Made by a program: the position numbers and the translations under genes. A stretch of DNA of 64,000 nucleotides from Parcubacteria group bacterium (GTDB lineage Bacteria; Patescibacteriota; Minisyncoccia; UBA10092). The stretch lies in contig JACPLW010000012.1 of assembly GCA_016186325.1 (NCBI GenBank), positions 18,644 through 82,643 of the forward strand. The letters are read 5' to 3'. A model generated the notes under the pieces. That model did not search any database. It saw nothing but the letters and a program-made list of their open reading frames with translations, and had not been told where the DNA came from. Position 1 is the first letter of the stretch; each line of letters starts with the position of its first letter. Shown piece after piece: positions 26,492-49,218 of the stretch.

Positions 26492-26586
26492 CCCGTTAGA
26501 AATCTATCTAGATTTTTCTTAATTATAAATACAATAGTAGTTGCTAATCTTAATTTAGTTTTATCTAATATAAAATTTCTAACGGG
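26492..26586. mobile_element. 95-bp AT-rich cassette with 12-bp TIRs CCCGTTAGAAAT/ATTTCTAACGGG between def stop and fmt start; flanking direct repeat ATGAA (start codon duplicated)
   Basis: TIRs read directly; same architecture at 29372-29471, 46605-46702, 49122-49218. Confidence 0.6.
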
Positions 26587-26591
26587 ATTCA

Positions 26592-27062
26592 TTATTTCTC
26601 CTCAACTACGTTAATCTTTTCCGCTTTATCAATAAACAAAATGCCGTTCAAATGGTCCATTTCATGCTGAATTACGCGAGCCAATAGTCCCTTGGCATGA
26701 ATTTTTATCGGCCTGCCGTTTTCATCCAGCGCTTTTATAGTTAGTTTTTTAGGACGAATTACCGGTCCCCAGGTTTTTTGAACCGACAAACAACCCTCTT
26801 CAAAAGGAACCAGCTCTTTTGAAAAATCCCTTATTTCCGGGTTGATGAAAACAAAAATACTACCCTCTATATCCGCGGTAAAAACCCGTAAAGAAACACC
26901 CACTTGAGGCGCCGCAAGGCCGAGGCCTTTAGCGCCTTTCATAGTTGCGACCATGTCTTTAATTAATTTCTGGATTTCCGGACTTTTTGGGTCTTTTACG
27001 ATTTCCGATTTTTTTCTTAGAACCGGATCGCCCTCTTGAATTATTTTTAACACTTTTGCCAT
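26592..27062 (-). CDS. def: peptide deformylase
   Basis: Start taken at ATG 27062 ('MAKVLKIIQEGDPVLRKKSE'); 'GLAAPQVG', 'EGCLS', 'HEMDHLNG'; the ORF-track extension to 27122 is translation through a repeat element. Confidence 0.85.
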   Translation of the reverse strand: MAKVLKIIQEGDPVLRKKSEIVKDPKSPEIQKLIKDMVATMKGAKGLGLAAPQVGVSLRVFTADIEGSIFVFINPEIRDFSKELVPFEEGCLSVQKTWGPVIRPKKLTIKALDENGRPIKIHAKGLLARVIQHEMDHLNGILFIDKAEKINVVEEK

Positions 27063-27345
27063 AGATTTGCTTGCCCTCCGTAGCTTTCTTGCCCGCCGAA
27101 GCTTTAGCGTAGGCGGGAGCAAAGGAGGATAATTCCTTTTTTAAAATCCCCATGAAATACTTGCCGCGGTCTTCGCTTTTGATTTTCCCTTGACGCCAGA
27201 CATCTTTTACCAAGCTTAGTATCCGCCTTAAAAATGATTCGTCATAGGTTTTTGCCAGACGAAAATATACCCCCTTATGCTTTTCGTCATCCAAACCCTC
27301 AACCAAATCCCACGCTAAAACTTGATGTTTTGTCGTTAAAGGCAT
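26959..27345 (-). CDS. hypothetical small protein; 3' end uncertain (reading frame runs through a GC-rich repeat and ~100 nt into def)
   Basis: Start at internal ATG 27345 ('MPLTTKHQVLAWDLVEGL...'); upstream part of track ORF overlaps ctpA start. Confidence 0.3.
   Translation of the reverse strand: MPLTTKHQVLAWDLVEGLDDEKHKGVYFRLAKTYDESFLRRILSLVKDVWRQGKIKSEDRGKYFMGILKKELSSFAPAYAKASAGKKATEGKQIYGKSVKNNSRGRSGSKKKIGNRKRPKKSGNPEIN
27070..27130. repeat. GC-rich composite hairpin element (TTGCCCTCCGTAGC..TGCCCGCC..GGCGGGAG..AAGGAGGA) immediately upstream of def
   Basis: Same family as 21891-21917; in the upstream ORF frame it encodes 'SSFAPAYAKASAGKKATEGK'. Confidence 0.7.
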
Positions 27346-27361
27346 AATATTAAAATACCAT

Positions 27362-28588
27362 ATGTTTGAGGAAAATAAAAAATATATATATTTAGCGGTT
27401 GTTACTATTGCCATAGTCGTGGCATTTGGGGCTGGTTTTGTTTTTGGATCGGTAGAGCGACTTCCTCGGCCGGTGCAGGGGATTATAAATAAAGAATTCG
27501 GCCAACCGAAAGAATTTGATTTTGGCTTATTTTGGGAAACTTTAGATAAACTTAATGAAAAGTACGTTGATAATGGCAAACTAAAAGACGACGAATTGCT
27601 TTACGGCGCTATTTCCGGATTGGTTAAAGGTGCCGGCGATCCTTACACGGTATTCTTTCCTCCGGTTGAATCAAAAAGTTTTAAGCAGGATGTTGGCGGC
27701 AGTTTTGGCGGTATCGGAGCCGAAATAGGTAAAAGAAATGGATTTTTGGTTATTATAGCGCCCCTTGAAGATACGCCTGCCCAAAAATCCGGGCTGCTCG
27801 CGGGTGATAAAATTTTAAAGATAAATAATGAACCGACCGACGATATAACCGTTGAAAAAGCGGTTACGAAAATACGCGGCGAGGTAGGCACCAAAGTAAC
27901 TCTAGCTATTTTAAGAGGTAATGACGGCACAAAAACGAAAGATATTGTCATTGAAAGAGCAATAATTAAAATCCCGATAACAAAACTTGAGGCGTTAGAA
28001 GATAACGCGATCGCTCATTTATCATTTTACAGCTTCACTTCAACAGCCCCATTTGAATTTCAAAAAGAGGCATCAAAAATTCTTGCCACTTCCGGCTATA
28101 AGGGTATAATTTTAGATTTGAGAAATAACCCAGGAGGTTACTTGGAAGTTGCGGTTGATATTGCCGGCTGGTTCCTTAATGCCGGAGATCTTGTTGCGAT
28201 TGAGGATTTCGGGAAAACCAGCGCAAAAACTGAATTTCGAGCAAGCGGCGTAGCCGCTCTTAAAAATTATCCGATGGTGGTTTTAGTTAATCAAGGCACG
28301 GCTTCGGCAGGCGAAATTTTAGCCGGCGCCCTAAGAGATAACCTAGGCATCAAATTAATAGGCGAAAAAACCTTCGGCAAGGGATCGGTGCAAGAACTGG
28401 TAAATTTTAAAGACGGCTCATCGCTCAAGGTTACCGTTGCCAAATGGCTCACGCCAAAAGGGATCTCAATTTCGGAACAAGGTTTGGAGCCAGACTTTAA
28501 GGTAGCTCCTACCGAAAAAGAACTAACAAACAAAAAAGATCCCCAGCTTGATAAAGCGGTGGAGATTCTCTTAAAAATGCTGAAATAA
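27362..28588 (+). CDS. ctpA: carboxyl-terminal processing protease (S41 family)
   Basis: 408 aa; TM anchor, PDZ, '[13 protein letters not shown]', '[11 protein letters not shown]'. Confidence 0.85.
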
Positions 28589-28610
28589 GAACGCGATACC
28601 AATATATTTT

Positions 28611-29066
28611 ATGAAAATAGTTTTACTTCAAGATGTTGATGGTTTGGGTAAAAAAGGAGACATTAAAAATGTCAGCGATGGCTACGGCCGTAATTTTCTT
28701 TTAAGAAAAGGGCTTGCTGAAATTTTAACGCCGGAAATAGAAAATCGGATAAAACTTGGGAAAGAAAAACAGGAAAAAGATGCAGTCAAACTAAAATCTC
28801 AAACAGCAATTTTAAAAGAAAATATTGAAAAACTAAAACTGGTAATTAAAACCAAAATAGGAAAAACAGGACAAGCATTTGGCTCAATAACTCCGGTAAA
28901 AATAGCAGCAGAACTTGAAAAACAGGGGATAGGGCTTCAAAAAGAGCAGATATTGTCTTCGCCGGTAAAAACCCTAGGCGAACATAAAATAAAAATAAAA
29001 CTGCCCCAAGGAATTGAGGCAGAATTGACAATTCTTATTGAATCGGAAGATACTAAAACTAAATAA
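28611..29066 (+). CDS. rplI: 50S ribosomal protein L9
   Basis: 151 aa; '[31 protein letters not shown]'. Confidence 0.9.
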
Positions 29067-29331
29067 CGTTTATTACTTTAAAAACTCTTCTGGAATTATC
29101 GTAACGTTTTGTCTTTTTATCGGTAAATTTTATGATTCCGGGACGCATGGCGTAAAGCGTGTCATCGCTGCCTTTTTTAACATTCTTTCCGGGAACCCAT
29201 TTAGTGCCCCTTTGACGCACCAAAATATTGCCCGCTTTTACCCGTTCGCCGTCAAAAAGTTTTATGCCTAATCGTTTTGATGCTGATTCTCGGCCTAATC
29301 TTGTTGAACCGGCCGATTTAGTAGTCGCCAT
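29059..29331 (-). CDS. rpmA: 50S ribosomal protein L27
   Basis: 90 aa; '[22 protein letters not shown]...[12 protein letters not shown]'. Confidence 0.9.
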
Positions 29332-29371
29332 AGATTTCTAATAGAATAACAAATTATGAATTATAAATCAA

Positions 29372-29471
29372 CCCCGTTAGAAATCTAATAAATCTTATGA
29401 GATTTAGCAGCATGTTTATATTTTATATTTAAACTATGTTTGATTGGTTAAAAAATAAATTTCTAACGGGG
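29372..29471. mobile_element. 100-bp AT-rich cassette with TIRs CCCCGTTAGAAAT/ATTTCTAACGGGG upstream of rpmA; flanking direct repeat TTGA
   Basis: Read directly; member of the CCCGTTAGAAAT TIR family. Confidence 0.6.
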
Positions 29472-29855
29472 TCAAGATACTCATACTTAATAAGGTGGGG
29501 GAAGGGGCATGAAAAAAACCTTTTAATCGGCTTAGTTTTAACGCTAGGATTTTTAATCGGACTGGGGACCGGTTTGCTTATGAATTCAAACCAAGTTTCA
29601 CCTATTATTATTGATAAAAATATCAAAGTCGGCCTGTTGGAGCCTGAAAATTACGGAACGGGGGATACAAATTCATCTAAAATAAACGCGAGTTTCGGCA
29701 ATTTTGTGGCTTCAATTAACGGCAAGGCTTATTACCCTAAAGATTGCAAATCCGCAAATGTAATTAAAGAAGAAAACAGGATCTGGTTTGAAAATGCAGA
29801 GGAAGCCGAAGCCGATGGTTATAGGCCGGCTCAAAATTGCCCTGTGAATAAATAA
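29436..29855 (+). CDS. small secreted/lipoprotein-like hypothetical; true start probably ATG 29509 with a +1 frame discrepancy in an A7 run
   Basis: Strong SD AAGGTGGGGGAAGGGG then ATG at 29509 is out of frame by one base with the long ORF; adding one A gives MKKNLLIGLVLTLGFLIGLGTGLL signal peptide. Confidence 0.4.
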   Translation: MFDWLKNKFLTGSRYSYLIRWGKGHEKNLLIGLVLTLGFLIGLGTGLLMNSNQVSPIIIDKNIKVGLLEPENYGTGDTNSSKINASFGNFVASINGKAYYPKDCKSANVIKEENRIWFENAEEAEADGYRPAQNCPVNK

Positions 29856-29913
29856 AGTGTTAAAATTATAATAGAAAAGTTAATATAGAAATATCTCAAA
29901 ATAATTTTTCACT

Positions 29914-30576: not shown

Positions 30577-30654
30577 ATAAGAAGGGGAGAAGAAGTTTTT
30601 AAATCAATACAACGTCGGACAAGATACCTTTTGCGACGTATCCCTTATTAAATA

Positions 30655-30690
30655 CCGGCCGGGCACTACCCTGGCCGGTATTTTTAATTT
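30655..30690 (+). terminator. intrinsic terminator ATACCGGCC gggcactaccct GGCCGGTAT + TTTTT
   Basis: Read directly. Confidence 0.65.
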
Positions 30691-31047
30691 TCACTTTACG
30701 GGGCAAAAAGTCTCAACAAGTTTATTTTCTACAGATCCTTTAATTAACCCCTTGGCTTTATCAATAACTATCGGAATTAGTTTGCTGGCCTCTGATCCAA
30801 CTGTTTCGGCCCCTGTTTTTATTTTATCCGTTATTTCCGAATAAGACGTATCCCCTATTTTTTCACCTGAAAGTTGGGGAAGACTATCAGTTTTAAAATT
30901 ATTAACCTTATTTAAAATAAATTTTGCGATATCGGTTCCTACCGGTAAAACCTCGCTTCCTTTTATAGTAAAGGATCTATCGGCATTTACGACAAAGTAG
31001 AGAGATAAAACCGCTAATATGATACCAATTATAATTAACGTTTTCAT
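30691..31047 (-). CDS. hypothetical membrane-anchored protein (118 aa)
   Basis: N-terminal TM helix; no domain recognised. Confidence 0.45.
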   Translation of the reverse strand: MKTLIIIGIILAVLSLYFVVNADRSFTIKGSEVLPVGTDIAKFILNKVNNFKTDSLPQLSGEKIGDTSYSEITDKIKTGAETVGSEASKLIPIVIDKAKGLIKGSVENKLVETFCPVK

Positions 31048-33824: not shown

Positions 33825-33825
33825 T

Positions 33826-37854: not shown

Positions 37855-38343
37855 TCATTTATATTCAAGCTTTTTTCGCAAATTATCCATAAATACAACT
37901 CTCTCTTTTGCTTCCTTTTTCAGTAAAGTTGAACAGGTTTTAACATACGGACTCATCACAAATCGCAATTTATTATTTTGATAAAGATGTTTTACCAGAG
38001 AATAAAAATCTCCATCACTCGAAACAATGATTGCCTGATTATAGTTTGGAAAATCAATCATGGCCTGTAAAACGAGATCGGCATCTATATTGCCCTTTAC
38101 ATTCCCATCATCGTCCGGAATAGTTGGCTTAAAAACCAATACATAGCCAGCTTTTTGCAGCTCAGAATAAAGCGGCTGATTGCCAGCCACATAACCGATA
38201 AAGTAATACGCTGTTGCTACAGAATATTTTTCCGCAAGGTATTTTCTAAAACGCCAATAATTTAATTTCCAGCCCAAGCTTTGAATACCTAGATTAAGAT
38301 TCTGACCATCTATAAACGCAAAATTGTTTTCGTCTTTTTTCAT
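37855..38343 (-). CDS. NYN-domain (LabA/DUF88-like, PIN-fold) putative ribonuclease
   Basis: Start at internal ATG 38343 ('MKKDENNFAFIDGQNL'); 'IVSSDGDF'; the track N-terminal extension overlaps the upstream gene. Confidence 0.65.
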   Translation of the reverse strand: MKKDENNFAFIDGQNLNLGIQSLGWKLNYWRFRKYLAEKYSVATAYYFIGYVAGNQPLYSELQKAGYVLVFKPTIPDDDGNVKGNIDADLVLQAMIDFPNYNQAIIVSSDGDFYSLVKHLYQNNKLRFVMSPYVKTCSTLLKKEAKERVVFMDNLRKKLEYK

Positions 38344-38356
38344 AAATTTACCATGC

Positions 38357-38557
38357 CTAATTTTTTGTTGGCCAGTATTCAAATAATTCACCGCATTTAT
38401 TACATTCGTATTGATAAAAAACATTAGTAAATTTAGGATATTCTTGCATTAATCTTGGTCTAACTATTGCGTCTCCATTTTCAATTTTAGTAATTTCGTG
38501 AATGTTAGAACTTTTACATTTAAGATTAGGGCATTCCTTTTCATTAGTTTTTTTCAT
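38357..38557 (-). CDS. small zinc-ribbon protein (two CxxC pairs)
   Basis: 66 aa; 'CPNLKC' ... 'CNKCG'; 13 nt upstream of NYN gene. Confidence 0.45.
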   Translation of the reverse strand: MKKTNEKECPNLKCKSSNIHEITKIENGDAIVRPRLMQEYPKFTNVFYQYECNKCGELFEYWPTKN

Positions 38558-38602
38558 AAATTTATTTTTAATAATTTAAGTTGATCATATAACTAAAAAC
38601 GA

Positions 38603-39913
38603 CTACTTATCTGACAGGTCTTCGATAGCGCCCTCTTTAATACCTCTAGCAGCCTTCACTGATTGAATTATCTTGTCCAACATAGTTTCATCCTTCCCAT
38701 AGACTTGCCCTGGGTGGCGCGCTATTACCTTTATCAGTTGAACGTCAAGTTCTTTTCTTGCTCCGGGTGAAATTGGATACGAGCCTTGTGTCTCTCTTGA
38801 AGAGAAATTTAGATACATTTTAGTTACTTGTGCTTTGTGGTTATATTCTTCAGCCAATCGTCTTTTGTGCGAGATACTTCTTTGTCCAAACCATGAGATC
38901 CACCATAAAGGTAAGCTAATAATTAGGCGGCCGTAAAAATTTAATCCACTTAGGTGACTTGCAATAATACTACTCGGATCTTGAGAACCCACTGCCCGAG
39001 CAAACCATTCAGGCTGAATAAAAATAGAGACAGAAATTAAGAGTGGCAATACAAAAAATACATAATCAAGAAGAACCATTATTATACTAATCACAAACAT
39101 TAAGATATTGGAAAAAATCGAGCCTACATTTTGGCCCAGTGTTCCATCTAATTTTTTGTATTCAGGTTCTTGTTTGTACTCTTTTTTTGATTTTAAAAAA
39201 CCTTCAACCAAAGAACCTCCAGAAGCCCCGACTAGCAACGCCTTAACATCCTTCGCCTTATTTACTATGTCGTCCTTAGTTTCTTTTAGAAATGGTGAGA
39301 TATCATTGTCGACATTAGCTCGAAAAGTTCTTATACGCTCAATATCCTTATTTAGTTTAGAAACCTTATTGTCTCCCTGCTCATCTTTAGCATATAGATC
39401 CTCATGAGATTTAATAACCTCTGCATGAGCAGACTCAATGGCTTTTGCGTACCCACCATCTTTCGTAAGATCAGAGTGGAATTTAGTAATATCCTCTATT
39501 ACTGTCTTTATTTTCTTCTCTTCTCCCTCTCCTTCTGTTCCACCAAAAAGATAAACATAAAAATCCGTAATATTATCTTGAGACTCCCGTATATCAGATT
39601 TAATAGACTCATCGCCTTCGAGTAAATCTTTATGATACTTTCGTATATCATCTAATTTTGTATTTAGTTCTGAAATCTTTGAAACACCAGATTCATTACT
39701 AACAAACAAATCACTGTATAGCTTTATAATATCTTCTAGGTGTGTTTCTACCTCGACAATAAGAGATTTCTTACCATCCTCACTTTCAAATAGCTTTTTA
39801 TAAGCTTCATTTATTTTTTTAATTTGAGATAAAGCATCTTTAACAAAGTTATCAAACTCTTTTTTACTAAAAGAATCTTCCGATTGAATATTTTGATTAT
39901 TTACATCTTCCAT
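38603..39913 (-). CDS. hypothetical protein: ~230-aa acidic cytoplasmic domain with internal ~45-aa repeats, then C-terminal membrane domain
   Basis: Repeated 'K(Y/F)H.DL..G' / 'DLYAKDEQG' units; TM segments 'ILMFVISIIMVLLDYVFFVLPLLI' and 'LIISLPLWWISWF'. Confidence 0.5.
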   Translation of the reverse strand: MEDVNNQNIQSEDSFSKKEFDNFVKDALSQIKKINEAYKKLFESEDGKKSLIVEVETHLEDIIKLYSDLFVSNESGVSKISELNTKLDDIRKYHKDLLEGDESIKSDIRESQDNITDFYVYLFGGTEGEGEEKKIKTVIEDITKFHSDLTKDGGYAKAIESAHAEVIKSHEDLYAKDEQGDNKVSKLNKDIERIRTFRANVDNDISPFLKETKDDIVNKAKDVKALLVGASGGSLVEGFLKSKKEYKQEPEYKKLDGTLGQNVGSIFSNILMFVISIIMVLLDYVFFVLPLLISVSIFIQPEWFARAVGSQDPSSIIASHLSGLNFYGRLIISLPLWWISWFGQRSISHKRRLAEEYNHKAQVTKMYLNFSSRETQGSYPISPGARKELDVQLIKVIARHPGQVYGKDETMLDKIIQSVKAARGIKEGAIEDLSDK

Positions 39914-40058
39914 AAATTTAATATTTTAATTCTGGCAAATATTTGGAGACTGATTTAAGACTAATTTTCCGGCTACATTTTATCTCTTTTATACTTTTTT
40001 GGCAAATTAAAAACTACCTCCGCCTGAATGGAGTCGGATTGGTAATTTGTAACTATTT

Positions 40059-40277
40059 TCATTTCGTATGTTTTTCTAGCGCTTCTCTTATAGACTCGAC
40101 TTCGTATTCTCTCTTGAACGTATCCCAACGCATATCTTTGCGCACGTTGAAATCAACGTTGTAGCGTTTCTCTAGTGTTTCTATCTTAGTATCACCGCGA
40201 ATTTTTTTAAGACGACCTCCTTGTGTCCTTGCTGCATGACCGGGCATATTTGGTGCGTTAGTATCTAGTTTTGGCAT
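40059..40277 (-). CDS. hypothetical small basic protein (72 aa)
   Basis: ORF preceded by GC-rich leader with terminator (40322-40342). Confidence 0.4.
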   Translation of the reverse strand: MPKLDTNAPNMPGHAARTQGGRLKKIRGDTKIETLEKRYNVDFNVRKDMRWDTFKREYEVESIREALEKHTK

Positions 40278-40321
40278 GATATCTTTTAATACTTAATTTT
40301 TATATTCGACCTTTAAGCAAC

Positions 40322-40420
40322 AAAAAACGCGGCTTTCCCGCGATTCATTTCTGAAACACCACCGAACAGCGGAGCTGTCGGGAAAGTATTTTTATGTGAA
40401 TCGGGGCGATAATGATTGAG
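40322..40420 (-). promoter_or_regulatory. candidate attenuator leader: CCGACAGC-ucc-GCUGUUCGG hairpin then CGCGG-gaaag-CCGCG + U6 terminator upstream of 40059-40277
   Basis: Upstream CUUUCCCG can pair with the terminator 5' arm CGGGAAAG (alternative antiterminator). Confidence 0.35.
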
Positions 40421-40573
40421 ATTTAATAAATTTAAAATTTTATAAATCCCCGATTGATGGATGCCGATTTTTAGTTGTTATTTAGATTTTAACAAATGTA
40501 TTACGTATGTCAATACAATATGTGGATAACTTTCGGTTTATTTTCGGTATCAGAAGTTTTATAATTAATATAT

Positions 40574-41167
40574 ATGTTAACAAAACGCCAAAAACAAATT
40601 TTAGATTTTTATAACAAGTTTTCTAAGAAACATGAATATTCCCCTTCTCTAGAAGAAACGGCAAAACACTTTCACCTATCGTCGGTTTCTGGTATCCACC
40701 AACATATTCAGGCACTTATAGAAAAGGGATGCTTAAGTAGGCAAAAAAATAAGCCGCGAGGAATTGAAATAGAAAAATCGGAAAAGCTTGTAAAAATTCC
40801 CTTGCTTGGCACAATCGCGGCTGGTGGCCCCATTGAAGCAATTAGAAGCCCCGAGATTATAGAAGTTATGCGCAGCATGCTCTCAAGTGGCGCTAATCAC
40901 TATGCCCTAAAAGTGTTGGGAGTAAGTATGATAGAAGAAGGTATTTCTGACGGCGATATTGTGATTGTTCGTGAACAATCGGCCGTCAATGACGGTGAAA
41001 AAGCAGTTGCGTATCTTCCCGACAAAAATACGGTTACTTTAAAAAAGATTTATAGAGAGCAAAATCGTATAAAACTTGTTCCGACAAATAAAACGATGAA
41101 GCCGTTTTACGAAAAAAATATTGAAGTTCAGGGCAAGGTAGTTGGAGTTTTAAGAAAGGAAATTTAG
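40574..41167 (+). CDS. lexA: LexA-family repressor (wHTH + S24 peptidase)
   Basis: 197 aa; 'GTIAAGGPIEA', catalytic Ser in 'LGVSMIEEGI', Lys in 'VTLKKI'. Confidence 0.8.
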   Translation: MLTKRQKQILDFYNKFSKKHEYSPSLEETAKHFHLSSVSGIHQHIQALIEKGCLSRQKNKPRGIEIEKSEKLVKIPLLGTIAAGGPIEAIRSPEIIEVMRSMLSSGANHYALKVLGVSMIEEGISDGDIVIVREQSAVNDGEKAVAYLPDKNTVTLKKIYREQNRIKLVPTNKTMKPFYEKNIEVQGKVVGVLRKEI

Positions 41168-41179
41168 TAAAATTACATT

Positions 41180-42721
41180 ATGAGTGGAAGCAAATCAATA
41201 ATAAATAATCTGCCAATACAAGATTTTAATTTAGTGCTTGACCGCCTTGGATTAGAAAAGGCATGGTATTCAATTTTAGCGACTAACTTAAGTAAAAATA
41301 ACAGAGACGACTTAAGATACATTTTTGACGAAAAAGAATTTAGAAATAACGAAATTCAAAACTTTGATTTTATTGGAGGCCTTACCATTGGTGAAATTTC
41401 GGTACTTTATGAATATTCTCTTGCTTATACAGATCGCGACAAGCGAAAACAAGAGGGACAATATTTTACTCCGGACGACGTTGCACAAATCATGGCAAAA
41501 AAGGTCTCCTCTTTTCCAAAAAATAAATTATGGATAGACCCGTGTTCTGGTGTCGGAAATTTGTCTTATTGGCTTATTCAACATCAAGAAAATAAGGAGA
41601 ATTTTTTAAAAAATAATATATTTCTTATTGATCGTGATAAATTAGCCTTATTTATTGCGCGATTTGTTTTAACAGTTAATTTTCAGAAAAAAGATAAAAA
41701 ATTATTTAAAAATATAAAATCCCGCTTTATCGTTTCTGACTTCTTGCTTTCTGATAATATACCAAAATATGATTATGCAATTCTTAACCCGCCCTATGTA
41801 GTTGTAGAACCCGATATGCGATTTGAAACAAGTACAACAAGAGATCTTTATGCTTATTTTTTAGAAAAAGTTATAAAAACTTCTATCGGTTTTGTTTCAA
41901 TCACGCCGCAAACATTTACAAATGGTCAAAAATTTAATCCTTTAAGGAAACTACTTCTAAATAACTTCGGTGACATTAGTGTTTATTGTTTTGACAATGT
42001 ACCTGATAACATTTTTCGCGGGATCAAATTTGGTTCAAAGAATACAAACAAAGCGAATAGTACAAGAGCAGGTATTATAGTTGCAAAACAAAATGATAAG
42101 GAACAAATTTTTAGAATAACCCCACTTCTCCGATGGCGTGTTAAAGATAGACAAAAACTTCTTAACTCTGTTGATGAATTTTTGGTTCAAATTAAACCAA
42201 AGGAAGATATTTTCCCGAAACTACAAAAGAATTTATTACCTCTTTACGATTTCGCGAAGAGACAAGAAAAAGTATTGGCCCACTTTGTGTCACAACGGCC
42301 AACACAATATAAGTTGATCGTTCCATCTACGCCAAGATACTTTATCTCCGCCCTCAAAAGGTCAGTGGAGCGATCTTCGTTCAAAACACTTTATTTTTAT
42401 AGCGAACAAGAAAGAGACACTGCGTATCTATTACTAAATAGCAGTTATATGTACTGGTGGTGGCGAGTTAATGATGGAGGAATGACGATATCAGAAAGAA
42501 CATTACTGACATTACCTATCATTAATAAAATTTCAATTGATAAAAACCTTTTGTTAAAAATCGAGCAATCAGAACGAACAAATTGTGTAGTTAAAAGAAA
42601 TGCAGGTAAAGATAATGAAAATGTAAAACATGACCCGTCATTAATAAAAGAAATTAACCAATGCCTTTTCCCGCGCTTTGCAAATGCACTAGAAATGTTA
42701 CATAATAATTCTGTAATTTAA
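41180..42721 (+). CDS. N6-adenine DNA methyltransferase (gamma-class), type II R-M
   Basis: 513 aa; 'GQYFTPDDVAQIM', motif I 'IDPCSGVGNL', motif IV 'AILNPPYVV', ~280-aa C-terminal putative TRD. Confidence 0.75.
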   Translation: MSGSKSIINNLPIQDFNLVLDRLGLEKAWYSILATNLSKNNRDDLRYIFDEKEFRNNEIQNFDFIGGLTIGEISVLYEYSLAYTDRDKRKQEGQYFTPDDVAQIMAKKVSSFPKNKLWIDPCSGVGNLSYWLIQHQENKENFLKNNIFLIDRDKLALFIARFVLTVNFQKKDKKLFKNIKSRFIVSDFLLSDNIPKYDYAILNPPYVVVEPDMRFETSTTRDLYAYFLEKVIKTSIGFVSITPQTFTNGQKFNPLRKLLLNNFGDISVYCFDNVPDNIFRGIKFGSKNTNKANSTRAGIIVAKQNDKEQIFRITPLLRWRVKDRQKLLNSVDEFLVQIKPKEDIFPKLQKNLLPLYDFAKRQEKVLAHFVSQRPTQYKLIVPSTPRYFISALKRSVERSSFKTLYFYSEQERDTAYLLLNSSYMYWWWRVNDGGMTISERTLLTLPIINKISIDKNLLLKIEQSERTNCVVKRNAGKDNENVKHDPSLIKEINQCLFPRFANALEMLHNNSVI

Positions 42722-42726
42722 TCCTT

Positions 42727-43383
42727 ATGATCTCAAAAGGTTTAGCTATACAATTAGAAAAATTGCTTAAAAAAATACCGGCCTTTTGGGACGGCCGCAA
42801 AGCAATCCTTGAAATGAAAGGGACGGGTTATTCGCACTGGAAACAAATGGAGTGGATAGGTTTCTATTTTCAATTTCTTTGTGATACAAAATTATCTCCG
42901 TTGGTAAAAATACCCGGTCCCAAGTACAATAGAGTAGAGTTTGATGGATTTGCCGAAATACCTTGGGATTTTAAAGCACACCCGAACAAAAACGCTACTG
43001 GTCAGGAGAACAAAAGTATTATTATCAATGATCGATTGGCCACCATAAAAGCAATTAAGCAATTCGGAGAAGCCGGACTTATACTAGCAATTGGGGATGC
43101 AGAATATAATGATGAAAATAGAAGCTTCCAAATTTGGCATAAAAAATTAAAGGGTGGGTTGTCTAATTACGAGAAACAAAGAATTTTGCGTAAAGCGCCT
43201 TCACGCTTGAGAAAAACCGCCTTCAAGTTGAAAGAAATTAAATTGGTTTTGATGAATAATAATATGATTCGAAAACTAAGTTCATTTCAAGAAGGTTTTA
43301 GAAATTCTGATGGAAGCCCAAGAAACGCGAAGTTACTTTTGGACTTAGATAAGATTGTTGCTGCCAAAACAATCCGATTTTAA
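42727..43383 (+). CDS. putative restriction endonuclease partner (PD-(D/E)xK-like)
   Basis: 218 aa directly 3' of MTase; 'VEFDGFAEIPWDFKAH' fits D...E.K spacing; weak. Confidence 0.4.
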   Translation: MISKGLAIQLEKLLKKIPAFWDGRKAILEMKGTGYSHWKQMEWIGFYFQFLCDTKLSPLVKIPGPKYNRVEFDGFAEIPWDFKAHPNKNATGQENKSIIINDRLATIKAIKQFGEAGLILAIGDAEYNDENRSFQIWHKKLKGGLSNYEKQRILRKAPSRLRKTAFKLKEIKLVLMNNNMIRKLSSFQEGFRNSDGSPRNAKLLLDLDKIVAAKTIRF

Positions 43384-43577
43384 AAAATTTTATTCTAATC
43401 TTCTTTTTCAAAATTAAGGCAAACGGAGTTTATGCAATACCTTTTTCCTTGCATTTGTACACCCCCTTTTCATGAGTATCCCAATATTTCCCGGAAAAAG
43501 GCGCTTCCGTATTATTTAAATCTTTATCTTTTTGATCGTAGGGCATTTAATCAATTAATGCATATTTTATTAAATAT

Positions 43578-43937
43578 TTATTGTCGTTTTTTATACTCTC
43601 CGAAAACGTGTACCCAGCCTTTTCTTTTGCGCTGCGTTTTTTCCGTTAATTCTCTTGTCTCGGCATCGTAGTATATGTTTTTTACTTCTTCGTCGGTTAT
43701 TGTTTCTTGAATTCGATCAAGCGCATCAACATTCACGTCATATTTTTTAACCAACTCAAAATCGCCTAAGTTTAATTGCGCCGTCTCGTTGTTATTAAGA
43801 TAGTTTACAGATATATATTCGGGGCCACTGCTATATGCTTGCGCCCAGCGACCATCAATTTTAATAATATCAAGCGTTGGCGGATATTCCGCTTTCTGTT
43901 CAGTTTCTCTTTTTATACTTTCTTCATTTTTCATTTC
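43578..43937 (-). CDS. hypothetical protein (start at internal ATG 43937)
   Basis: 'MKNEESIKRETEQ...'; the longer track ORF overlaps mraY. Confidence 0.4.
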   Translation of the reverse strand, partial: EMKNEESIKRETEQKAEYPPTLDIIKIDGRWAQAYSSGPEYISVNYLNNNETAQLNLGDFELVKKYDVNVDALDRIQETITDEEVKNIYYDAETRELTEKTQRKRKGWVHVFGEYKKRQ

Positions 43938-44964
43938 ATTTACCAAGTAGACCGATGACAAGGCCGATGGTGGCGGTAACGGCGGAAATAATCCAAAAGC
44001 GCATTGTAACTTTTGTTTCCGGCCAGCCCATTGCCTCAAAATGGTGATGAATGGGCGTTGAAAGAAAGATTTTTTTTCCGCGGAATTTTTTTGAAATCAT
44101 CTGAACGATTACCGAACCGGATTCCAAAACAAGAATAAAAGCGATAAGCGGCAAAAGAAGCGCGGCGTTAGTAAGCATGGCAACAATGCCAAGCGTTACT
44201 CCAAGCGACATCGCACCAGTGTCCCCCATAAAAAACCGCGCCGGATGAATATTAAACCACAAAAATGCCAATAGGGCGCCCACGATAACGCCGGTAAATG
44301 CCGCCAAATCATAATGTTCTTGAGTGAAGGCTAGGGCGCCCAAAGCGGCAAAAGCGAATAAAAGAACTCCGCCCGCAAGGCCGTCCAAACCGTCGGTTTC
44401 ATTGGTAGAAAAAGCAGTGGCAACAATTATAAAAATAAAAATCGGCAAATACCAAAAGCCGACACTAAAATCCCCTAAAAATGGAATATAAAAAACATCA
44501 AAGCCAAGTTTGAAATAAAACCACCACGCGCCTATGGCCGCCACGGCAGTATAAAGAAAAATCTTATGTTTCATTGACAATCCCCCGCCCTTTGGACCTA
44601 TCCGAAAAATACCAAGTAAATCATCGGCAAATCCTAAGATTGCCGAAAAAACTAAGGCGCCTAGCGGCAAAAATGTCTGTGAACGGCTTAAAAAATTAAA
44701 ACGGTTGAAAATGCCGTCAAAAAACAAAGAAAATAACCAGAAGCCGATAGCTAAAACCAGGGTTGTCCCCCAAACCAAGATTCCACCCATAGTCGGCGTG
44801 CCTTCTTTGCTTCCATGAATTTTGGCAAAAATTGGAGCGCCCTCGGTTCTTATCTGCTTTCCAAGCCTATATTTAAACAAAAAATGCGTTAAAAGCGGAG
44901 TTAAAGAAAACGCCACCAAAAACGAAACTGAAGTTAAAATTAAAAGTCGTGTTATCTCGCTCAT
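43936..44964 (-). CDS. mraY: phospho-N-acetylmuramoyl-pentapeptide transferase MraY
   Basis: Start at ATG 44964 ('MSEITRLLILTSV'); 'DDLLGIF', 'NETDGLDGLAGG', 'MGDTGA'. Confidence 0.9.
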   Translation of the reverse strand: MSEITRLLILTSVSFLVAFSLTPLLTHFLFKYRLGKQIRTEGAPIFAKIHGSKEGTPTMGGILVWGTTLVLAIGFWLFSLFFDGIFNRFNFLSRSQTFLPLGALVFSAILGFADDLLGIFRIGPKGGGLSMKHKIFLYTAVAAIGAWWFYFKLGFDVFYIPFLGDFSVGFWYLPIFIFIIVATAFSTNETDGLDGLAGGVLLFAFAALGALAFTQEHYDLAAFTGVIVGALLAFLWFNIHPARFFMGDTGAMSLGVTLGIVAMLTNAALLLPLIAFILVLESGSVIVQMISKKFRGKKIFLSTPIHHHFEAMGWPETKVTMRFWIISAVTATIGLVIGLLGK

Positions 44965-44983: not shown

Positions 44984-45949
44984 TTACCAGATATATGCCT
45001 CTCGTAACCAATTAATAAGTTTTTCCGATTCGCCAAAACGATCGGGAGATCCCAAAATTACCGTTATTACATTTTCTTCACTTCCAAAGTTTAGGCTGGA
45101 AATCAAAAGCATCAGCGAGCCGCCAGCGTTGTCGGTATAGCCAGTCTTACCGGCCACTACTTCGCTTATGTGTCTCAAAAGTTCATTGGTATTTTTAAGA
45201 CGGTGTTCAATTTTTCCGTTATTAGAATAAACTACCATATTTTGGGTTTTTAAAATATCCAATATTTCCGGATAAGTATTTATTAGATAACTAAAAATTT
45301 TGGCCATATCAAGCGCGGAAGAATAATTTCCATCTTCATCTAGTCCGTCGGCATTTACAAAATTAGTATTTTTGAGGCCAAGATTGCTAGCCTTTTTATT
45401 CATCAGCAAAATGAAATCTATTCTATATTCGGCCAGCGCTGAAGCGGCATCATTTGAGGAACTAATAAGCATTATGGCTAGAAGAGATCTTACTGTTATT
45501 TCTTCGTTTAAATATAAGCCGCCTTGCGATCCTTCTCTTTTTATATTATCTTCGGAGATTTTAATTATATCGTTTAAATTGTAATTTTCCAAAACAACTA
45601 TCGCCGTCATCAGTTTAGTAAGAGAGGCAATCGGCCGCCGAACTTCCATATTTTTATTGTAATAGATTCTTAGGGCATCAGGTCTCATAGCAACAGCCGC
45701 TTCCGCTTGGATTTCTAATGCCTGTATTGACCAATTTCTTTTTGGCAAAACGTTTTCCGAATCATCAAAAACAACTAGCTTCGGCGGCGCGAAATTTGTA
45801 AATGCCAATGGCGTTCCTTTAAGCTGAAATTTCGGCCCTTCGTCAGCGGTTGTTGGCCTGTCTTTAAACGGCGCGCCAAAAACCCAAATCAAAAAAGCGA
45901 TACCCAAAACGGCAGACATTTTAAAATAAAAATTTTCAGTGGAGTCCAT
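44984..45949 (-). CDS. dacA: D-alanyl-D-alanine carboxypeptidase (S11, PBP5-like)
   Basis: 321 aa; 'IASLTKLMT' (SxxK), 'SSNDAA' (SxN), 'AGKTGYT' (KTG). Confidence 0.8.
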   Translation of the reverse strand: MDSTENFYFKMSAVLGIAFLIWVFGAPFKDRPTTADEGPKFQLKGTPLAFTNFAPPKLVVFDDSENVLPKRNWSIQALEIQAEAAVAMRPDALRIYYNKNMEVRRPIASLTKLMTAIVVLENYNLNDIIKISEDNIKREGSQGGLYLNEEITVRSLLAIMLISSSNDAASALAEYRIDFILLMNKKASNLGLKNTNFVNADGLDEDGNYSSALDMAKIFSYLINTYPEILDILKTQNMVVYSNNGKIEHRLKNTNELLRHISEVVAGKTGYTDNAGGSLMLLISSLNFGSEENVITVILGSPDRFGESEKLINWLREAYIW

Positions 45950-45985
45950 GTAGTATAAAAATAAATATAAATTATTTTCCGAAGC

Positions 45986-46047
45986 TTATGAAAGCGTTTT
46001 AGCATGGTTCCCCCGCAACTGCGGGGAATAAAACGCTTTCATCGGAC
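45986..46047. repeat. compound hairpin ATGAAAGCGTTTTA-[..CCCCCGCAACTGCGGGG..]-TAAAACGCTTTCAT then GTCCCGCgctgGCGGGACGAGCGCGCGAG
   Basis: 14-bp IR flanking the recurrent CCCGCAACTGCGGG core; related GTCCCGCG..GCGGGACGAGCG motif at 47585-47625. Confidence 0.6.
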
Positions 46048-46097
46048 AATGAGTCCCGCGCTGGCGGGACGAGCGCGCGAGAAAAATGATTTAAATT

Positions 46098-46604
46098 TTA
46101 ATTTTTTAATTCGTTATAATTCGGCAAATCTTCTAACTTATTTAAACCCAAATGTTTTAAAAAATCAAAAGATACCTTGTAAATATAAGAGCGGCCGTCT
46201 TCCGGATTATTTTTTTTCTCTACAAGGCCGCGAATGGCCAAGTTCTGTAAAATAAAGCTGCAATTGACGCCGCGTAAATTTTCAATTACCGCGCGGCTTA
46301 CTGGGCCGCGATAAGCAATAATCGCCAAAGTTTCCAAAGCGGCTTGGGATAGGTCTTCCTCAAAATCGCTCTTAATCAATTTTTTAACCGCTTCTTCCGA
46401 TTCCGGCGCCGTTACCAGCTGAACTTTATTATCGGAAAAAACCAAACGAAAGCCGCGATTGTTTGTTTCGTAATCGCTTGCTAATATGTTTAATTCATTT
46501 TCCAGTTCTTTTTCAGGAATCTCTAAAATTTCTGATAATTTTTTAAAACCGATAGGATGTCCGGAAGTAAACAACAAACTTTCTATTATTGAAATAAGAT
46601 TCAT
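46098..46604 (-). CDS. scpB: segregation and condensation protein B
   Basis: 168 aa; 'IIESLLF', 'AALETLAIIAYRGPVSRAVIENLRGV'. Confidence 0.85.
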   Translation of the reverse strand: MNLISIIESLLFTSGHPIGFKKLSEILEIPEKELENELNILASDYETNNRGFRLVFSDNKVQLVTAPESEEAVKKLIKSDFEEDLSQAALETLAIIAYRGPVSRAVIENLRGVNCSFILQNLAIRGLVEKKNNPEDGRSYIYKVSFDFLKHLGLNKLEDLPNYNELKN

Positions 46605-46702
46605 CCCGTTAGAAATTTAATAAAATTATAATTAACTAAATTATTATTAAGCAATTGTTTTTGCAATGCGATATTAAATGAGAAAAATAGATTTCTAACG
46701 GG
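46605..46702. mobile_element. 98-bp AT-rich cassette with TIRs CCCGTTAGAAAT/ATTTCTAACGGG between scpA stop and scpB start; ATGAAT duplicated on both sides
   Basis: Upstream ATGAAT contains scpA TGA stop; downstream ATGAAT is scpB M-N. Confidence 0.65.
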
Positions 46703-46704
46703 AT

Positions 46705-47508
46705 TCATAAATTATCGCTGACTTTTTTTACTTTAATCTCTCCGAATAATTTATCTTGGGAAATTTCTAAAACTCTTTTTCTAAAAAGCATTAAAATCGC
46801 AATAAACGCCAAAACAACATTAATCTTTTCTGCTTTTGAGGTCGAACCACTTGTGGTGAGCAAAGTCGAACCACTTGTGGTGAGCAAAGTCGAACCACTT
46901 GTGGTGAGCAAAGTCGAACCAGAAATTTCGTTAAATGACGCTTCGGCCGCCGTACTTACTCTGCCCATAAGTTCTTCAATTTTTTCTTCCAAACTCATTA
47001 TTCTAACAAGGCCTTTTTCTTCCAATTTTTCAATCTGGGGCAGAGTCTTTAAAAATAGTTCGTAGATGTTTTTGAGATCTTCTATCGTAATACTTTTAGG
47101 CGGATAGAAGGTGGTTTGTAGGTTTAAAAAGTATTCTCTTGAAAAATAAGAATTGCGGCCCTTTGTCCATTTTCCCAGCATCTTCGCCATTGTTTTGATT
47201 TCCTGATACGCCTTTAACCGATTTTGCAGGTCTTTTATATCATCTTCTTCTTCAACGCTTAAAACAAGATTGGGCAAAAGCGAACGCGATTTTATAAGAA
47301 TCAGGCGGCTTGCAACAACCAAAAAATCAGCAAGTATTCTTTGATACTCGCTAGATACATCGCTTTTTATTTTTTTTAGATATTCCAAAAACTGATCCGT
47401 AACCTGTGCCAAAGAAATTTCGCCTATGGCCATCTTTTTTTCTTCTATTAAAGAAATTAGAAGATCTAACGGACCGGTAAATTTTTCTAAACTGACTTTA
47501 TATTCCAT
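46705..47508 (-). CDS. scpA: segregation and condensation protein A
   Basis: 267 aa; 'FTGPLDLLISLIEEKK'; C-terminal region contains a tandem octapeptide repeat. Confidence 0.85.
   Translation of the reverse strand: MEYKVSLEKFTGPLDLLISLIEEKKMAIGEISLAQVTDQFLEYLKKIKSDVSSEYQRILADFLVVASRLILIKSRSLLPNLVLSVEEEDDIKDLQNRLKAYQEIKTMAKMLGKWTKGRNSYFSREYFLNLQTTFYPPKSITIEDLKNIYELFLKTLPQIEKLEEKGLVRIMSLEEKIEELMGRVSTAAEASFNEISGSTLLTTSGSTLLTTSGSTLLTTSGSTSKAEKINVVLAFIAILMLFRKRVLEISQDKLFGEIKVKKVSDNL
46841..46922. repeat. 24-bp tandem repeat x3.4 (GTCGAACCACTTGTGGTGAGCAAA) inside scpA, encoding (TTSGSTLL)x3
   Basis: Perfect copies at 46841, 46865, 46889 read directly. Confidence 0.85.
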
Positions 47509-47539
47509 AATTTATTGCTAGAAAAAATAATTACATATT

Positions 47540-47655
47540 TATTCTCTAAGCGGGTTATGAGCGCGAAGCGGGCATGGTGTCCCGCGAAGCGGGACGAGCG
47601 AGCGCGAATCCCTGAGCGAGCACGCTGGGCGAGCGAGGAAAGCGAGAGAATAAAT
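47540..47655. repeat. GC-rich repeat-laden intergenic block (GCGCGAAGCGGG, GTCCCGCgaaGCGGGACGAGCGAGCGCGAA, GAGCGAG repeats) bounded by IR TATTCTCT/AGAGAATA
   Basis: Between aspS stop and scpA start. Confidence 0.5.
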
Positions 47656-47678
47656 ATGGAATTATTGTTGTATTTTGA

Positions 47679-49121
47679 TTATTTTTTTACAGAAATATGT
47701 AATTCTTTTAACTGTTTTTCGTTAACTTCTGATGGTGCGCCCATCAGCAAATCTCTATCATCGCCGGTTTTGGGAAACGCAATAACTTCCCTAATTGACT
47801 GCTCATTCATTAAAATCATCATGAGCCGATCAAGCCCAAGCGCAATGCCCCCATGCGGTGGAGCGCCATATTCAAAAGCGCGAAGCATATGGCCAAAACG
47901 CGCCTCAATGTCTTTTTTCTCAACTCCTAAAACTTCAAACATTTTATTTTGCAATTCTCTTTTATGGATTCTGATGCTTCCACCGCCTATTTCACTGCCA
48001 TTCAAAACCAAGTCATATGCTTTTGCTTTTAATTTTTCCGGATGAGTCATGTCGATATCAGCGGGTTTGCCCGCCAAAATTTCTTCGAAATTTCCGGCGG
48101 GCGCAGTAAACGGATGGTGCGATGAAACCCATTTTTTTTCGGTTTTGGAATATTCCAATAACGGCATATTCACTACCCAGGCGAAAGCCAATTCATCGGG
48201 ATTATTTTTACCTGCCCCGTAGGGTCGCGAAGCGACTCCTTCGGGGTCTTCGCGCAAATCCGGTTTATCGGAATTATATCTTGCCATTACTTCATCATAA
48301 TCCATTCTCGGAAACGGCTTCTTCCAAATTTTCTTTTCTGGAAAAATTGTTTCAACAAGTTTAATCATCATTCCTTCAATCAAATCCAAGACGTCGTCTT
48401 CCTCAACAAAACTCATTTCAACATCAAGCTGGGTAAATTCCGGCTGGCGGTCTCCCCTGCTATCTTCATCTCTAAAACAGCGAGCAATTTGAAAATATCT
48501 CTCCAAACCGGCGACCATTAAAAGCTGTTTGAATTGCTGGGGCGACTGGGGTAAAACATAAAAATTACCCGGGTGCTTTCTGGAAGGCACAACAAATTCC
48601 CGCGCTCCTTCGGGCGTGCCCTTGGTTAAATCCGGTGTTTCAACTTCTATAAATTTTTGTTCTTTTAGATAATTATTTAAAAATCTTAAAACTTCAGAGC
48701 GCTTCGTTAAGTTTTTCTGCATTTTTGGGTCGCGCAAATCAAGATAGCGATATTCCATCCGCAACTCCTCCCCTACTTTATCTTTTTCTCCAATTTCAAA
48801 AGGTGGAGTTTTGGCCTCATTTAAAACTTCCAGTTCTTCGGCGGCAAGTTCAATTTCGCCGGTTTCCAGTTTTGGGTTTTTCAGATTTTCCGGCCGCTCT
48901 TTTACCGTGCCTTCAATTGAAACAACCCACTCGGAGCGAAGCTGGTCGGCTTGTTTTCGCAAATCTTCGTTTCCTGCAAAAACAACCTGGAGCAAGCCGG
49001 AGCGGTCTCTTAAATCAATAAAAATAATCTTGCCGTGGTCGCGGCGCACATGAACCCAGCCGGAAACCTTAACCTTCTCTCCCACTTTTGAAATTGTTTC
49101 GTTTATAAATATGCGTTTCAT
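47679..49121 (-). CDS. aspS: aspartyl-tRNA synthetase (short, non-GAD type)
   Basis: 480 aa; OB fold, motif 2 'FRDEDSRGDRQPEFTQLDVEMSF', motif 3 'GGIALGLDRLMMIL'. Confidence 0.9.
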   Translation of the reverse strand: MKRIFINETISKVGEKVKVSGWVHVRRDHGKIIFIDLRDRSGLLQVVFAGNEDLRKQADQLRSEWVVSIEGTVKERPENLKNPKLETGEIELAAEELEVLNEAKTPPFEIGEKDKVGEELRMEYRYLDLRDPKMQKNLTKRSEVLRFLNNYLKEQKFIEVETPDLTKGTPEGAREFVVPSRKHPGNFYVLPQSPQQFKQLLMVAGLERYFQIARCFRDEDSRGDRQPEFTQLDVEMSFVEEDDVLDLIEGMMIKLVETIFPEKKIWKKPFPRMDYDEVMARYNSDKPDLREDPEGVASRPYGAGKNNPDELAFAWVVNMPLLEYSKTEKKWVSSHHPFTAPAGNFEEILAGKPADIDMTHPEKLKAKAYDLVLNGSEIGGGSIRIHKRELQNKMFEVLGVEKKDIEARFGHMLRAFEYGAPPHGGIALGLDRLMMILMNEQSIREVIAFPKTGDDRDLLMGAPSEVNEKQLKELHISVKK

Positions 49122-49218
49122 CCCGTTAGAAATTTATTTAAATAAATAATGTTAATTTTTAATCAATATCCGACATTTGGCATATCCCGCAGACTAATAT
49201 TTATAGATTTCTAACGGG
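49122..49218. mobile_element. 97-bp AT-rich cassette with TIRs CCCGTTAGAAAT/ATTTCTAACGGG abutting aspS start; ATGAA duplicated
   Basis: Read directly. Confidence 0.6.

Follow-up and report, generated by a model that had tools for sequence, protein, structure and literature searches.

MITEs (miniature transposable elements with inverted repeats) such as Correia/NEMIS of Neisseria, ERIC and RUP are ~50-130 bp long, carry terminal inverted repeats, duplicate their target, contain no transposase gene and occur in many copies; they form hairpins in transcripts and are frequently co-transcribed with neighbouring genes. Rickettsia palindromic elements (RPEs; Ogata et al. 2000, 2002) are characterized, according to PMC10969869, as palindromic selfish DNA located in frame in unrelated protein-coding genes as well as in non-coding DNA, with no known transposase. 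Here, we describe seven copies (four AT-rich and three GC-rich) of a short cassette with conserved, inverted ends in a 64-kb window, that is, the whole analyzed stretch of 64,000 nucleotides from contig JACPLW010000012.1 of a Parcubacteria group bacterium. These cassettes very probably represent widespread, non-autonomous, hairpin-forming elements of the MITE type that behave like RPEs, and the family is apparently undescribed. The sites at which they are inserted, namely start codons, -35 boxes and reading frames, are those where the ends of the element rebuild the interrupted signal.

The four AT-rich cassettes end in exact copies of the arms CCCGTTAGAAAT / ATTTCTAACGGG. The 12-mer CCCGTTAGAAAT occurs exactly eight times in the window, as four facing pairs (26492/26586, 29373/29470, 46605/46702 and 49122/49218), and the 9-mer CCGTTAGAA was found 15 times against 0.68 expected from shuffled sequences. 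This recurrence is not a matter of chance. Beyond the eight AT-rich ends, the 9-mer matches comprise the three GC-rich relatives and a solo match at ~19290, inside the 3' end of an open reading frame (ORF), which is probably fortuitous. The terminal inverted repeat takes the form (T/C)CCCGTTAGAAAT, or in its longer notation (T/C)CCCGTTAGAA(A/G)T, a facing pair being written CCCGTTAGAA..TTCTAACGGG; counted with flanking bases, the inverted repeats in the window are 14-18 nt long, and with the terminal pair 13-18 nt. The core between the arms is variable, and those of the four AT-rich copies could not be aligned with one another. A previous reading made from the letters alone (hereafter the sequence-only reading) had described four cassettes with conserved termini and unrelated cores, and both observations were reproduced.

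Copies 1, 3 and 4 adjoin the ATGs of ORFs 25634-26491, 46098-46604 and 47679-49121, which were identified by Pfam or homology as Fmt, ScpB and AspRS; all three proteins are complete when read from the downstream ATG, so the proposed location at the start codons of fmt, scpB and aspS was confirmed. The Pfam domains of ScpB and AspRS begin a few residues after the downstream ATG, indicating that these ATGs are the authentic starts, and the Fmt of the window is 100% identical to a protein from a metagenome-assembled genome of the Parcubacteria group. In copy 3, the scpA TGA stop is retained within the upstream ATGAAT and the scpB ATG is supplied by the downstream duplicate; as had been suggested, the stop/start overlap is split with both genes intact. 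Copy 2 is flanked by TTGA/TCAA, as are the three GC-rich relatives of 54-55 bp, in line with the resemblance pointed out previously.

Evidence for insertion is provided by empty sites. The def-fmt junction was recovered from four relatives (L123 and L125-L127) whose Fmt proteins are 71-77% identical to that of the window. In all four, it reads ..GA(A/G)(A/G)AAATAATGAAATTT.., with the def TAA overlapping the fmt ATG and the cassette absent. The uninterrupted ..AATAATGAAATTT.. of the relatives is represented on the gene strand of the window, at copy 1, by ..GAGGAGAAATAATGAA-T-[CCCG...CGGG]-A-TGAA-ATTT... Similarly, in three relatives nothing interrupts the rpmA promoter (..atcTTGAtttataat(c/t)cat(a/t)atttgttattct..ATG), with the empty site atcTTGAtttataat..tattct..ATG kept in L125 and L127, where the window has TTGA-C-[CCCG...CGGG]-G-TTGA-tttataat. 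No arm was found anywhere in the 20-kb loci of the relatives. At both loci with checked empty sites, the net gain is the sum of the element, its terminal pair of complementary bases (T..A or C..G) and the 4 bp that are duplicated (TGAA or TTGA). Exact-protein look-ups for the ScpB and AspRS of the window returned no record. These comparisons of orthologous sites indicate that the cassettes are true insertions, as the sequence-only reading had assumed. That reading also proposed a duplicated ATGAA start codon; the direct repeat is real, but it is better described as a duplication of TGAA plus the terminal A of the element, since in the reported ATGAA(T) the right-hand A belongs to the element and the left-hand A is native. 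The positions of all copies are given in Table 1.

Table 1. Copies of the element, and RNA genes, in the 64-kb window
Feature	Site	Extent with flanks	Strand	4-bp duplication	Terminal pair	Arms or members
AT-rich copy 1	def/fmt junction	26487..26591	-	TTCA 26487-26490 + 26588-26591 (+ strand)	T26491/A26587	26492-26503, 26575-26586
AT-rich copy 2	-35 region of rpmA (L27) promoter	29368..29475		TCAA 29368-29371 + 29472-29475 (minus strand TTGA)	C29372/G29471	29373-29384, 29459-29470
AT-rich copy 3	scpA/scpB junction	46600..46707	-	TTCA 46600-46603 + 46704-46707	T46604/A46703	46605-46616, 46691-46702
AT-rich copy 4	aspS start	49117..49223	-	TTCA 49117-49120 + 49220-49223	T49121/A49219	49122-49133, 49207-49218
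GC-rich relative, AGAAGT arms	in frame in GT39/PMT_2 glycosyltransferase gene (11059-12684, minus)	11201..11264	-	TCAA 11201-11204 + 11261-11264		element 11206-11259
Tandem GC-rich pair, AGAAGT arms		24920..25045		TTGA common to both between them		members 24925-24979, 24986-25040
RNase P RNA		59208-59537				
5S rRNA		63655-63770				
23S rRNA, 3' end		63847-64000				
tRNA genes (seven)		10724-10988, 21780-21850, 53203-53348				

The distribution of the element was determined by an exact search for both arms spaced 60-90 nt apart, with one genome per species, which returned at least 120 loci. The loci listed from this search, together with AGAAGT variants and the copies of the window, form a set of 135 elements; all counts given below for this set are among the matches listed. 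The arms are present in at least 120 genomes from several phyla, so the termini recur well beyond the window. Of the two outcomes named as refuting the sequence-only reading, shared cores at orthologous junctions and termini that do not recur, neither was obtained. Most of the matches listed belong to Patescibacteria (Saccharibacteria, Doudna-, Yanofsky-, Kaiser-, Campbell- and Nomurabacteria, among others), and many to Deltaproteobacteria/Thermodesulfobacteriota (contigs of 0.3-1.2 Mb included), Planctomycetes, Omnitrophota, Nitrospirae and Stahlbacteria. Over all scans, element lengths range from 27 to 223 nt and are mostly 84-128 nt. Additionally, viral contigs were scanned with 14-mers; nearly all hits were single chance matches, with both a forward and a reverse arm in 5 of 240 loci and close arm pairs in three (L163, L171 and L362). 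Two minimal elements were observed in IMG/VR contigs, one of 27 nt consisting of two arms and a CCA loop (L362, 3963-3989) and one of 45 nt on a GGAG..ATGAAT start (L163, 10173-10217). As these contigs are putatively viral, the minimal copies hint at a path from one phylum to another.

Among the 135 elements, the 4-bp direct repeat is perfect in 83 and matches at three of four positions in 11 more. The duplicated tetranucleotides are TGAA (34), TAAA (22), TGGA (6), TTGA (6), TGAG (4), TGTA (2) and TGCG (2), and the terminal pair is C/G in 75 elements and T/A in 55. Rare variable tetranucleotides are copied exactly (ATGAGT..ATGAG, ATGCGT..ATGCG), which marks a true target duplication rather than sequence carried by the element. 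Six copies without the 4-bp duplication, from unrelated genomes, share an ACTTGT left flank and a right flank that opens with the gene ATG (L017 4806, L040 6256, L041 5095, L046 (minus) 1709, L106 6803 and L110 7874); this flank could go back to a TTG start at which 2 bp were duplicated, or reflect UUGU-AUGA pairing in the RNA.

Start codons are the preferred sites. Nearly half of the set (65 of 135) adjoins, with zero spacing, an ATG or GTG opening an ORF of at least 60 codons. As a background, the 32 loci holding TGAA-duplicated elements contain 3,280 TGAA sites, comprising 2,780 within ORFs of at least 100 aa, 424 outside them and 76 at ATGAA starts. Of the TGAA-duplicated elements, 29 of 34 lie at starts, compared with 76 starts among ~500 TGAA sites that are either non-coding or at a start. 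With the purine-rich strand of the duplication as the reference for orientation, a start was touched by 42 of 81 elements, and 7 more lay within 25 nt upstream of one, whereas the corresponding numbers on the opposite side were 2 and 4. Sites other than starts follow the consensus A-A-G before TAAA and are often located between a Shine-Dalgarno-like sequence and the ATG. Because the element terminates in A or G, a TGAA at a start is rebuilt as ATGAA or GTGAA; for instance, a C/G-ended element gives ATGAAC..GTGAA, and the start codon of the gene is now GTG.

A comparable regeneration was observed at promoters, where duplication of TTGA at a -35 box rebuilds TTGAnn. The tandem GC-rich pair ends on TTGACA-16-TATAAT, which scored 12/12 in the promoter scan (25042-25069), and its last TTGA (25042-25045) provides the first four bases of that -35 box. 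The TTGA shared by its two members is as expected if the second copy inserted into the duplication of the first. At aspS, a predicted promoter (TTGAAT-18-TAGAAT with an upstream TG, i.e., an extended -10) ends at 49234, ~10 nt before the upstream copy of the ATG, placing this ATG (49224) within a few nt of the likely transcript start. Judging from this arrangement, aspS probably had little or no leader until the element inserted.

Copies were also identified inside reading frames. The GC-rich copy at 11206 had been considered as a -35 insertion, which was ruled out by its position in frame inside the GT39 gene, where it adds 20 residues (..EF D-PVRSKTPTASDDLSTSNG-VD KI..). Nine orthologues of the GT39 protein, with 67-74% identity across the full alignment, are without these residues; a single one, P0242, carries them at the identical position. 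In the DNA of this 71%-identical orthologue (L489, 2880-2945), the same GC-rich element occupies that codon position, and closer or equally close orthologues do not have it. Arms and duplications match at 36 of 36 positions between the window and L489, against an identity of 75-83% for the coding DNA on either side, and one inner hairpin has undergone a double compensatory substitution, from AGACGC/GCGTCT to AGTTGC/GCAACT. The two insert-bearing proteins are not exclusive sisters in a neighbour-joining tree, implying that the site was hit twice or that at least one lineage lost the element precisely; given the low resolution of the tree, we regard this result as only suggestive.

Other in-frame copies were found in UvrC (L019), where alignment to the PDB entry 2nrr shows a 23-residue insert between conserved blocks, in a pyruvate/indolepyruvate-type oxidoreductase (L015) and in a radical SAM protein (L060). 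In all four cases, the inserted lengths (87+6, 90+6, 69+6 and 54+6 nt) are multiples of three and open in frame, and the arms translate as PVR(N/S) and (I/T)SNG. These open arms (PVRN, ISNG in frame 0) and an inserted length divisible by three explain how copies can persist inside genes. Nested within the radical SAM copy (L060, 907-996) is a second pair of arm-like repeats, in which two changes are compensated (CCCATTACAAAT..ATTTGTAACGGGG). The GT39 gene of the window contains a second, unrelated palindromic repeat (12161-12212), consisting of two tandem ~25-bp copies of AATTATCGATGTCGGACATC(A/G)ATAATTAT whose in-frame translation is ..SMSDINNYRCRTSII..; this is precisely where the orthologues differ in length in the alignment.

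Clustering of the cores yielded several small families and many singletons besides a deltaproteobacterial family of 18 elements, which has two GC-rich inner hairpins; near-identical cores at unrelated loci speak for mobility. An extended stem, CGCGGAC..GTCCGCG, bearing a 4-nt TCCT bulge is common to approximately 16 elements from Saccharibacteria, Kaiserbacteria and others. A metagenome scan that used the first 30 nt of deltaproteobacterial family members as seed gave at least 120 loci, with 110 unique insertions among the matches listed. All loci listed were MITEs, 66 of them 93 nt long, with variants of 125-223 nt bearing extra GC hairpins and with some right arms mutated; decayed arms in some copies are as expected for selfish DNA. 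Among the 110 insertions, TAAA/TAAA flanks were present in 91, G preceded the duplication in 104 and A preceded that G in 81, the right-hand TAAA varying less than the left. Relative to neighbouring genes the bias is weak, with the next downstream ORF of at least 100 aa on the same strand in 55 insertions and on the opposite strand in 34. The size variants (125, 158, 191 and 223 nt; L369-L488, e.g. L397 and L427) have inner hairpins enlarged by GC-rich palindromes such as CCCTCCGGGGTGGAACCCCCTACGGGGCGGAACCC, as if small palindromic elements were nested in them.

On the gene strand of start-associated copies, a Shine-Dalgarno sequence and an ATG are kept upstream of the stem, and codons 3-6 of the frame opened there (CCC GUU AGA AAU) are the 5' arm. 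At the other end, the 3' arm reads ISNG-M in one frame, FLTG-stop with the TGA overlapping the ATG in the second, and F-stop with a TAA 7 nt before the ATG in the third. The resulting upstream open reading frame (uORF) has 34 codons in copy 1 (MNPVRN..RFLTG-stop, its TGA overlapping the fmt ATG) and 35 in copy 3 (MNPVRN..KFLTG-stop, ending on ATGA). In copy 4 it stops after 7 codons, 82 nt before the downstream aspS ATG, near which no Shine-Dalgarno sequence is present. Public assemblies annotate the copy-1 uORF (MNPVRN..RFLTG) as a gene (L121 526-630, L122 447-551), and such peptides therefore probably sit in protein databases as hypothetical proteins. In the predicted folds, the arms are paired, with z-scores of -2.8 to -5.5 for AT-rich and -7 to -10 for GC-rich copies, which supports, at the level of prediction, the earlier suggestion that the arms can pair in the mRNA.

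The target is TRAA-like (TGAA, TAAA, TTGA) and is duplicated over 4 bp. The survival of copies at starts may be due to sequence-specific targeting (xATGAA, AGTAAA) together with purifying selection, the genomes being very compact. For translation of the downstream gene, the 14-bp stem could fold away ~100 nt; alternatively, a ribosome from the retained upstream Shine-Dalgarno sequence and ATG would melt the stem and terminate at or near the real ATG. Both the hairpin-bridged start and the melting by an upstream ribosome are plausible. Mobilization may depend on a cut-and-paste transposase making 4-bp staggered cuts, which could be of the IS1380/piggyBac type.

Several observations weigh against a selfish MITE as the full explanation. 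Only about one third of the 65 start-associated elements have a uORF extending to the 3' arm, and the three frames are used equally, so that obligatory reading up to the 3' arm was rejected. A role of core orientation in keeping the start accessible was likewise rejected, with predicted accessibilities of 0.175 for native and 0.177 for reversed cores (p = 0.6). The 20 elements without a direct repeat are patterned, six having the ACTTGT left flank and fourteen flanks of an inverted type. Polarity is fixed in some families: in the CGCGGAC family, the bulge is 3' with respect to the downstream gene in 16 of 16 cases with differing genes, and all 110 deltaproteobacterial insertions listed share one core orientation relative to the asymmetric target AG before TAAA. 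Together with the weak gene bias, the latter indicates that polarity in the deltaproteobacterial family follows the target sequence and not transcription. Perfectly palindromic arms combined with fixed polarity are unusual for a simple DDE element; the GC-rich copies of the window occur in both polarities relative to TTGA. Furthermore, the window cores are unrelated while all eight arms are perfect, which implies several source copies elsewhere or selection on the arms in place.

The search for a parent enzyme was also negative. In ~0.9 Mb of flanking DNA, including the at least 120 genome loci, neither an autonomous element nor a transposase with these ends was detected, and long-spaced arm pairs, solo arms and proteins recurring across loci revealed no parent insertion sequence among the loci examined; the ORFs beside solo arms are ordinary housekeeping or phage genes. 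No longer, gene-bearing element was detected in the 240 viral loci or in the at least 120 metagenome loci obtained with the deltaproteobacterial left-end seed. A Pfam scan of 10 of the ~63 ORFs in the window identified neither a transposase nor an integrase, and plasmid BLAST gave no match. These negative results add to the points against the selfish-element interpretation. A literature search for the arm sequence retrieved unrelated primers only, and one for MITEs in Candidate Phyla Radiation bacteria or at start codons retrieved nothing relevant.

The alternative that fares best is a domesticated regulatory hairpin, which would have spread as mobile DNA, with the copies at start regions kept for translational control or coupling. 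It might act by uORF-dependent melting, by termination-reinitiation at ATGA, by RNase processing to a leaderless mRNA or as a thermometer-like switch. The strong excess at starts and within 25 nt upstream of them agrees with such a role, as do the retained Shine-Dalgarno sequence and ATG, the stops of both wrong frames beside the real ATG, the stable predicted stems, and the 36/36 identity of arms and duplications with a compensated inner hairpin between orthologous copies. However, a role of this kind does not apply to the copies that lie upstream of promoters or within ORFs, and close relatives express the same essential genes without the element. The length and frame of the uORF are unconstrained, some arms are decayed, and covariation is weak in the deltaproteobacterial hairpins (term +0.4), with no signal beyond sequence conservation. 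We therefore consider domestication unlikely as the general explanation, although it retains some weight.

A bolder proposal addresses the fixed polarity. A folded stem-loop, or seamless movement like that of piggyBac, could carry a 4-nt "memory" of the previous flank that dictates the next target and orientation, allowing exact excision and signal-regenerating insertion. This would be an undescribed bacterial mode of movement, possibly with its own enzyme, shared across phyla and perhaps spread by phages, and we give it a small chance. Slightly less credit is due to single-strand transposition of the hairpin by an HUH/Y1 enzyme, as in palindrome-associated transposable elements derived from IS200/IS605 or in REPINs moved by RAYTs, with the stem as substrate and TRAA as cleavage or target site. 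Fixed polarity relative to an asymmetric penta- or hexanucleotide target and a more constant right TAAA recall such systems, as do the GC-rich subterminal hairpins of some families, the 27- and 45-nt copies that are little more than arms, and the REPIN-like combination of conserved arms with variable cores. Nevertheless, they make no target duplication, whereas here TGAG, TGCG, TGGA, TAGA and CAAA are duplicated exactly; both checked empty sites show a 4-bp net gain, and no Y1 transposase was observed near any copy examined. On balance, this explanation appears improbable.

Removal or bypass at the RNA level, by a tiny intron or by a cassette over which the ribosome "hops" from AUGAAU (take-off) to AUGAA (landing), is very improbable. 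A direct repeat around a stable stem, a Shine-Dalgarno sequence present only upstream, and aspS, with its early uORF stop and no Shine-Dalgarno sequence near the downstream ATG, would all suit it. In-gene lengths that are always multiples of three would be needless if the element were removed or skipped, and copies occur in untranscribed promoter DNA. Rfam 15, at gathering and permissive thresholds, identified no family, ribozyme or intron, the sole match within an element being a chance-level miRNA (E = 2.2). Finally, integron attC-like sites or paired operators of a DNA-looping regulator, architectures mentioned in the sequence-only reading, can practically be dismissed: conserved ends, a variable centre and ~60-130 bp recall the general shape of attC, but the flanks are direct target duplications rather than inverted RYYYAAC/GTTRRRY core-site boxes, no integrase was found among the 10 of ~63 window ORFs scanned, and the elements interrupt housekeeping junctions and reading frames instead of following cassette ORFs, some lying within coding sequence, and are absent from close relatives with the same genes.

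Other features were observed in the window. Inverted-repeat pairs with ~95-nt spacing at 53917-54088 and 47523-47669, one with 39-nt arms containing ATCCACAAAGGGTGGGGGAT and the other with 25-nt AT-rich arms, may be small palindromic elements of different families. A 26-nt inverted repeat at 63642-63784 merely flanks the 5S gene. The region 38000-44000 has a GC content of 0.335-0.35 and encodes a NYN-domain protein, LexA, and an Eco57I-type N6 methylase, and two further ORFs there match no Pfam entry; no transposase was identified among the ORFs scanned there, and this low-GC stretch may be an island.

The element has consequences for annotation, as hundreds of gene starts in Patescibacteria and several uncultured phyla are preceded by a ~100-nt hairpin. 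Gene callers produce spurious MNPVRN..FLTG peptides, may pick wrong starts and record 20-30-residue inserts in conserved proteins. The ends of the element look built for harmlessness, being open in one frame, stopping near the ATG in the other two, and regenerating ATG, GTG or TTGA. Moreover, the essential genes fmt, scpB and aspS are evidently expressed with ~100 nt of stem-loop displacing their Shine-Dalgarno sequence or leaderless 5' end, and such displaced starts constitute a natural test case for hairpin-bridged or reinitiation-type translation in organisms that are not yet culturable. To our knowledge, a 12-nt end shared across phyla together with family- and orientation-specific targets is a combination present in no known bacterial MITE, and it points to a transposase that is still unidentified.

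Compared with known families of enzymes, the element shows some compatibility with IS1380 and piggyBac. The IS1380 family (ISfinder table) is characterized by 4-5-bp duplications and ends starting with CC, and piggyBac has ends of TTAA followed by CCCTAGAAAGATA and excises seamlessly, leaving 4-nt overhangs. The element has a 4-bp T..A duplication, CCC-initial ends and a TAGAA motif in its terminal repeat, a likeness amounting to compatibility only. The ends of ISEcp1 (CCTAGATTCTACGT) share only the initial CC with it, and the list of ISEcp1 homologues contained close relatives only and no distant IS1380 members; neither a PF13701 nor a PF13843 transposase was seen near any copy examined. In contrast to the palindromic TTAA of piggyBac, the target of the element is asymmetric. 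Seamless excision could explain its inherited target and polarity. REPINs and their RAYTs also provide a parallel, with two inverted arms, a poorly conserved spacer, a ~100-nt hairpin and presumed mobilization in trans; however, REPINs are extragenic, make no target duplication and have arms that are each palindromic with GTAG, whereas the arms described here are not self-palindromic.

The likeness to RPEs is closer in behaviour: the element is palindromic, lies in frame in genes (GT39, UvrC, oxidoreductase and radical SAM) and adds a peptide, as described for RPEs (PMC10969869). At the level of features, it differs from RPEs in its hosts and presumably its sequence family, in its 4-bp duplications, in its empty sites and in the location of most copies at starts. 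As in MITEs, we found inverted repeats, a duplication with empty sites, small size and many copies at unrelated loci. Unlike Correia elements, which duplicate TA, the element duplicates a 4-bp T-R-A-A. Its 13-17-bp arms are identical across phyla, whereas known MITE families are limited to a genus or family, and it is further distinguished by cores that are unrelated even within one genome, by a bias toward start codons with regeneration of ATG or GTG, and by the fixed polarity of some of its families.

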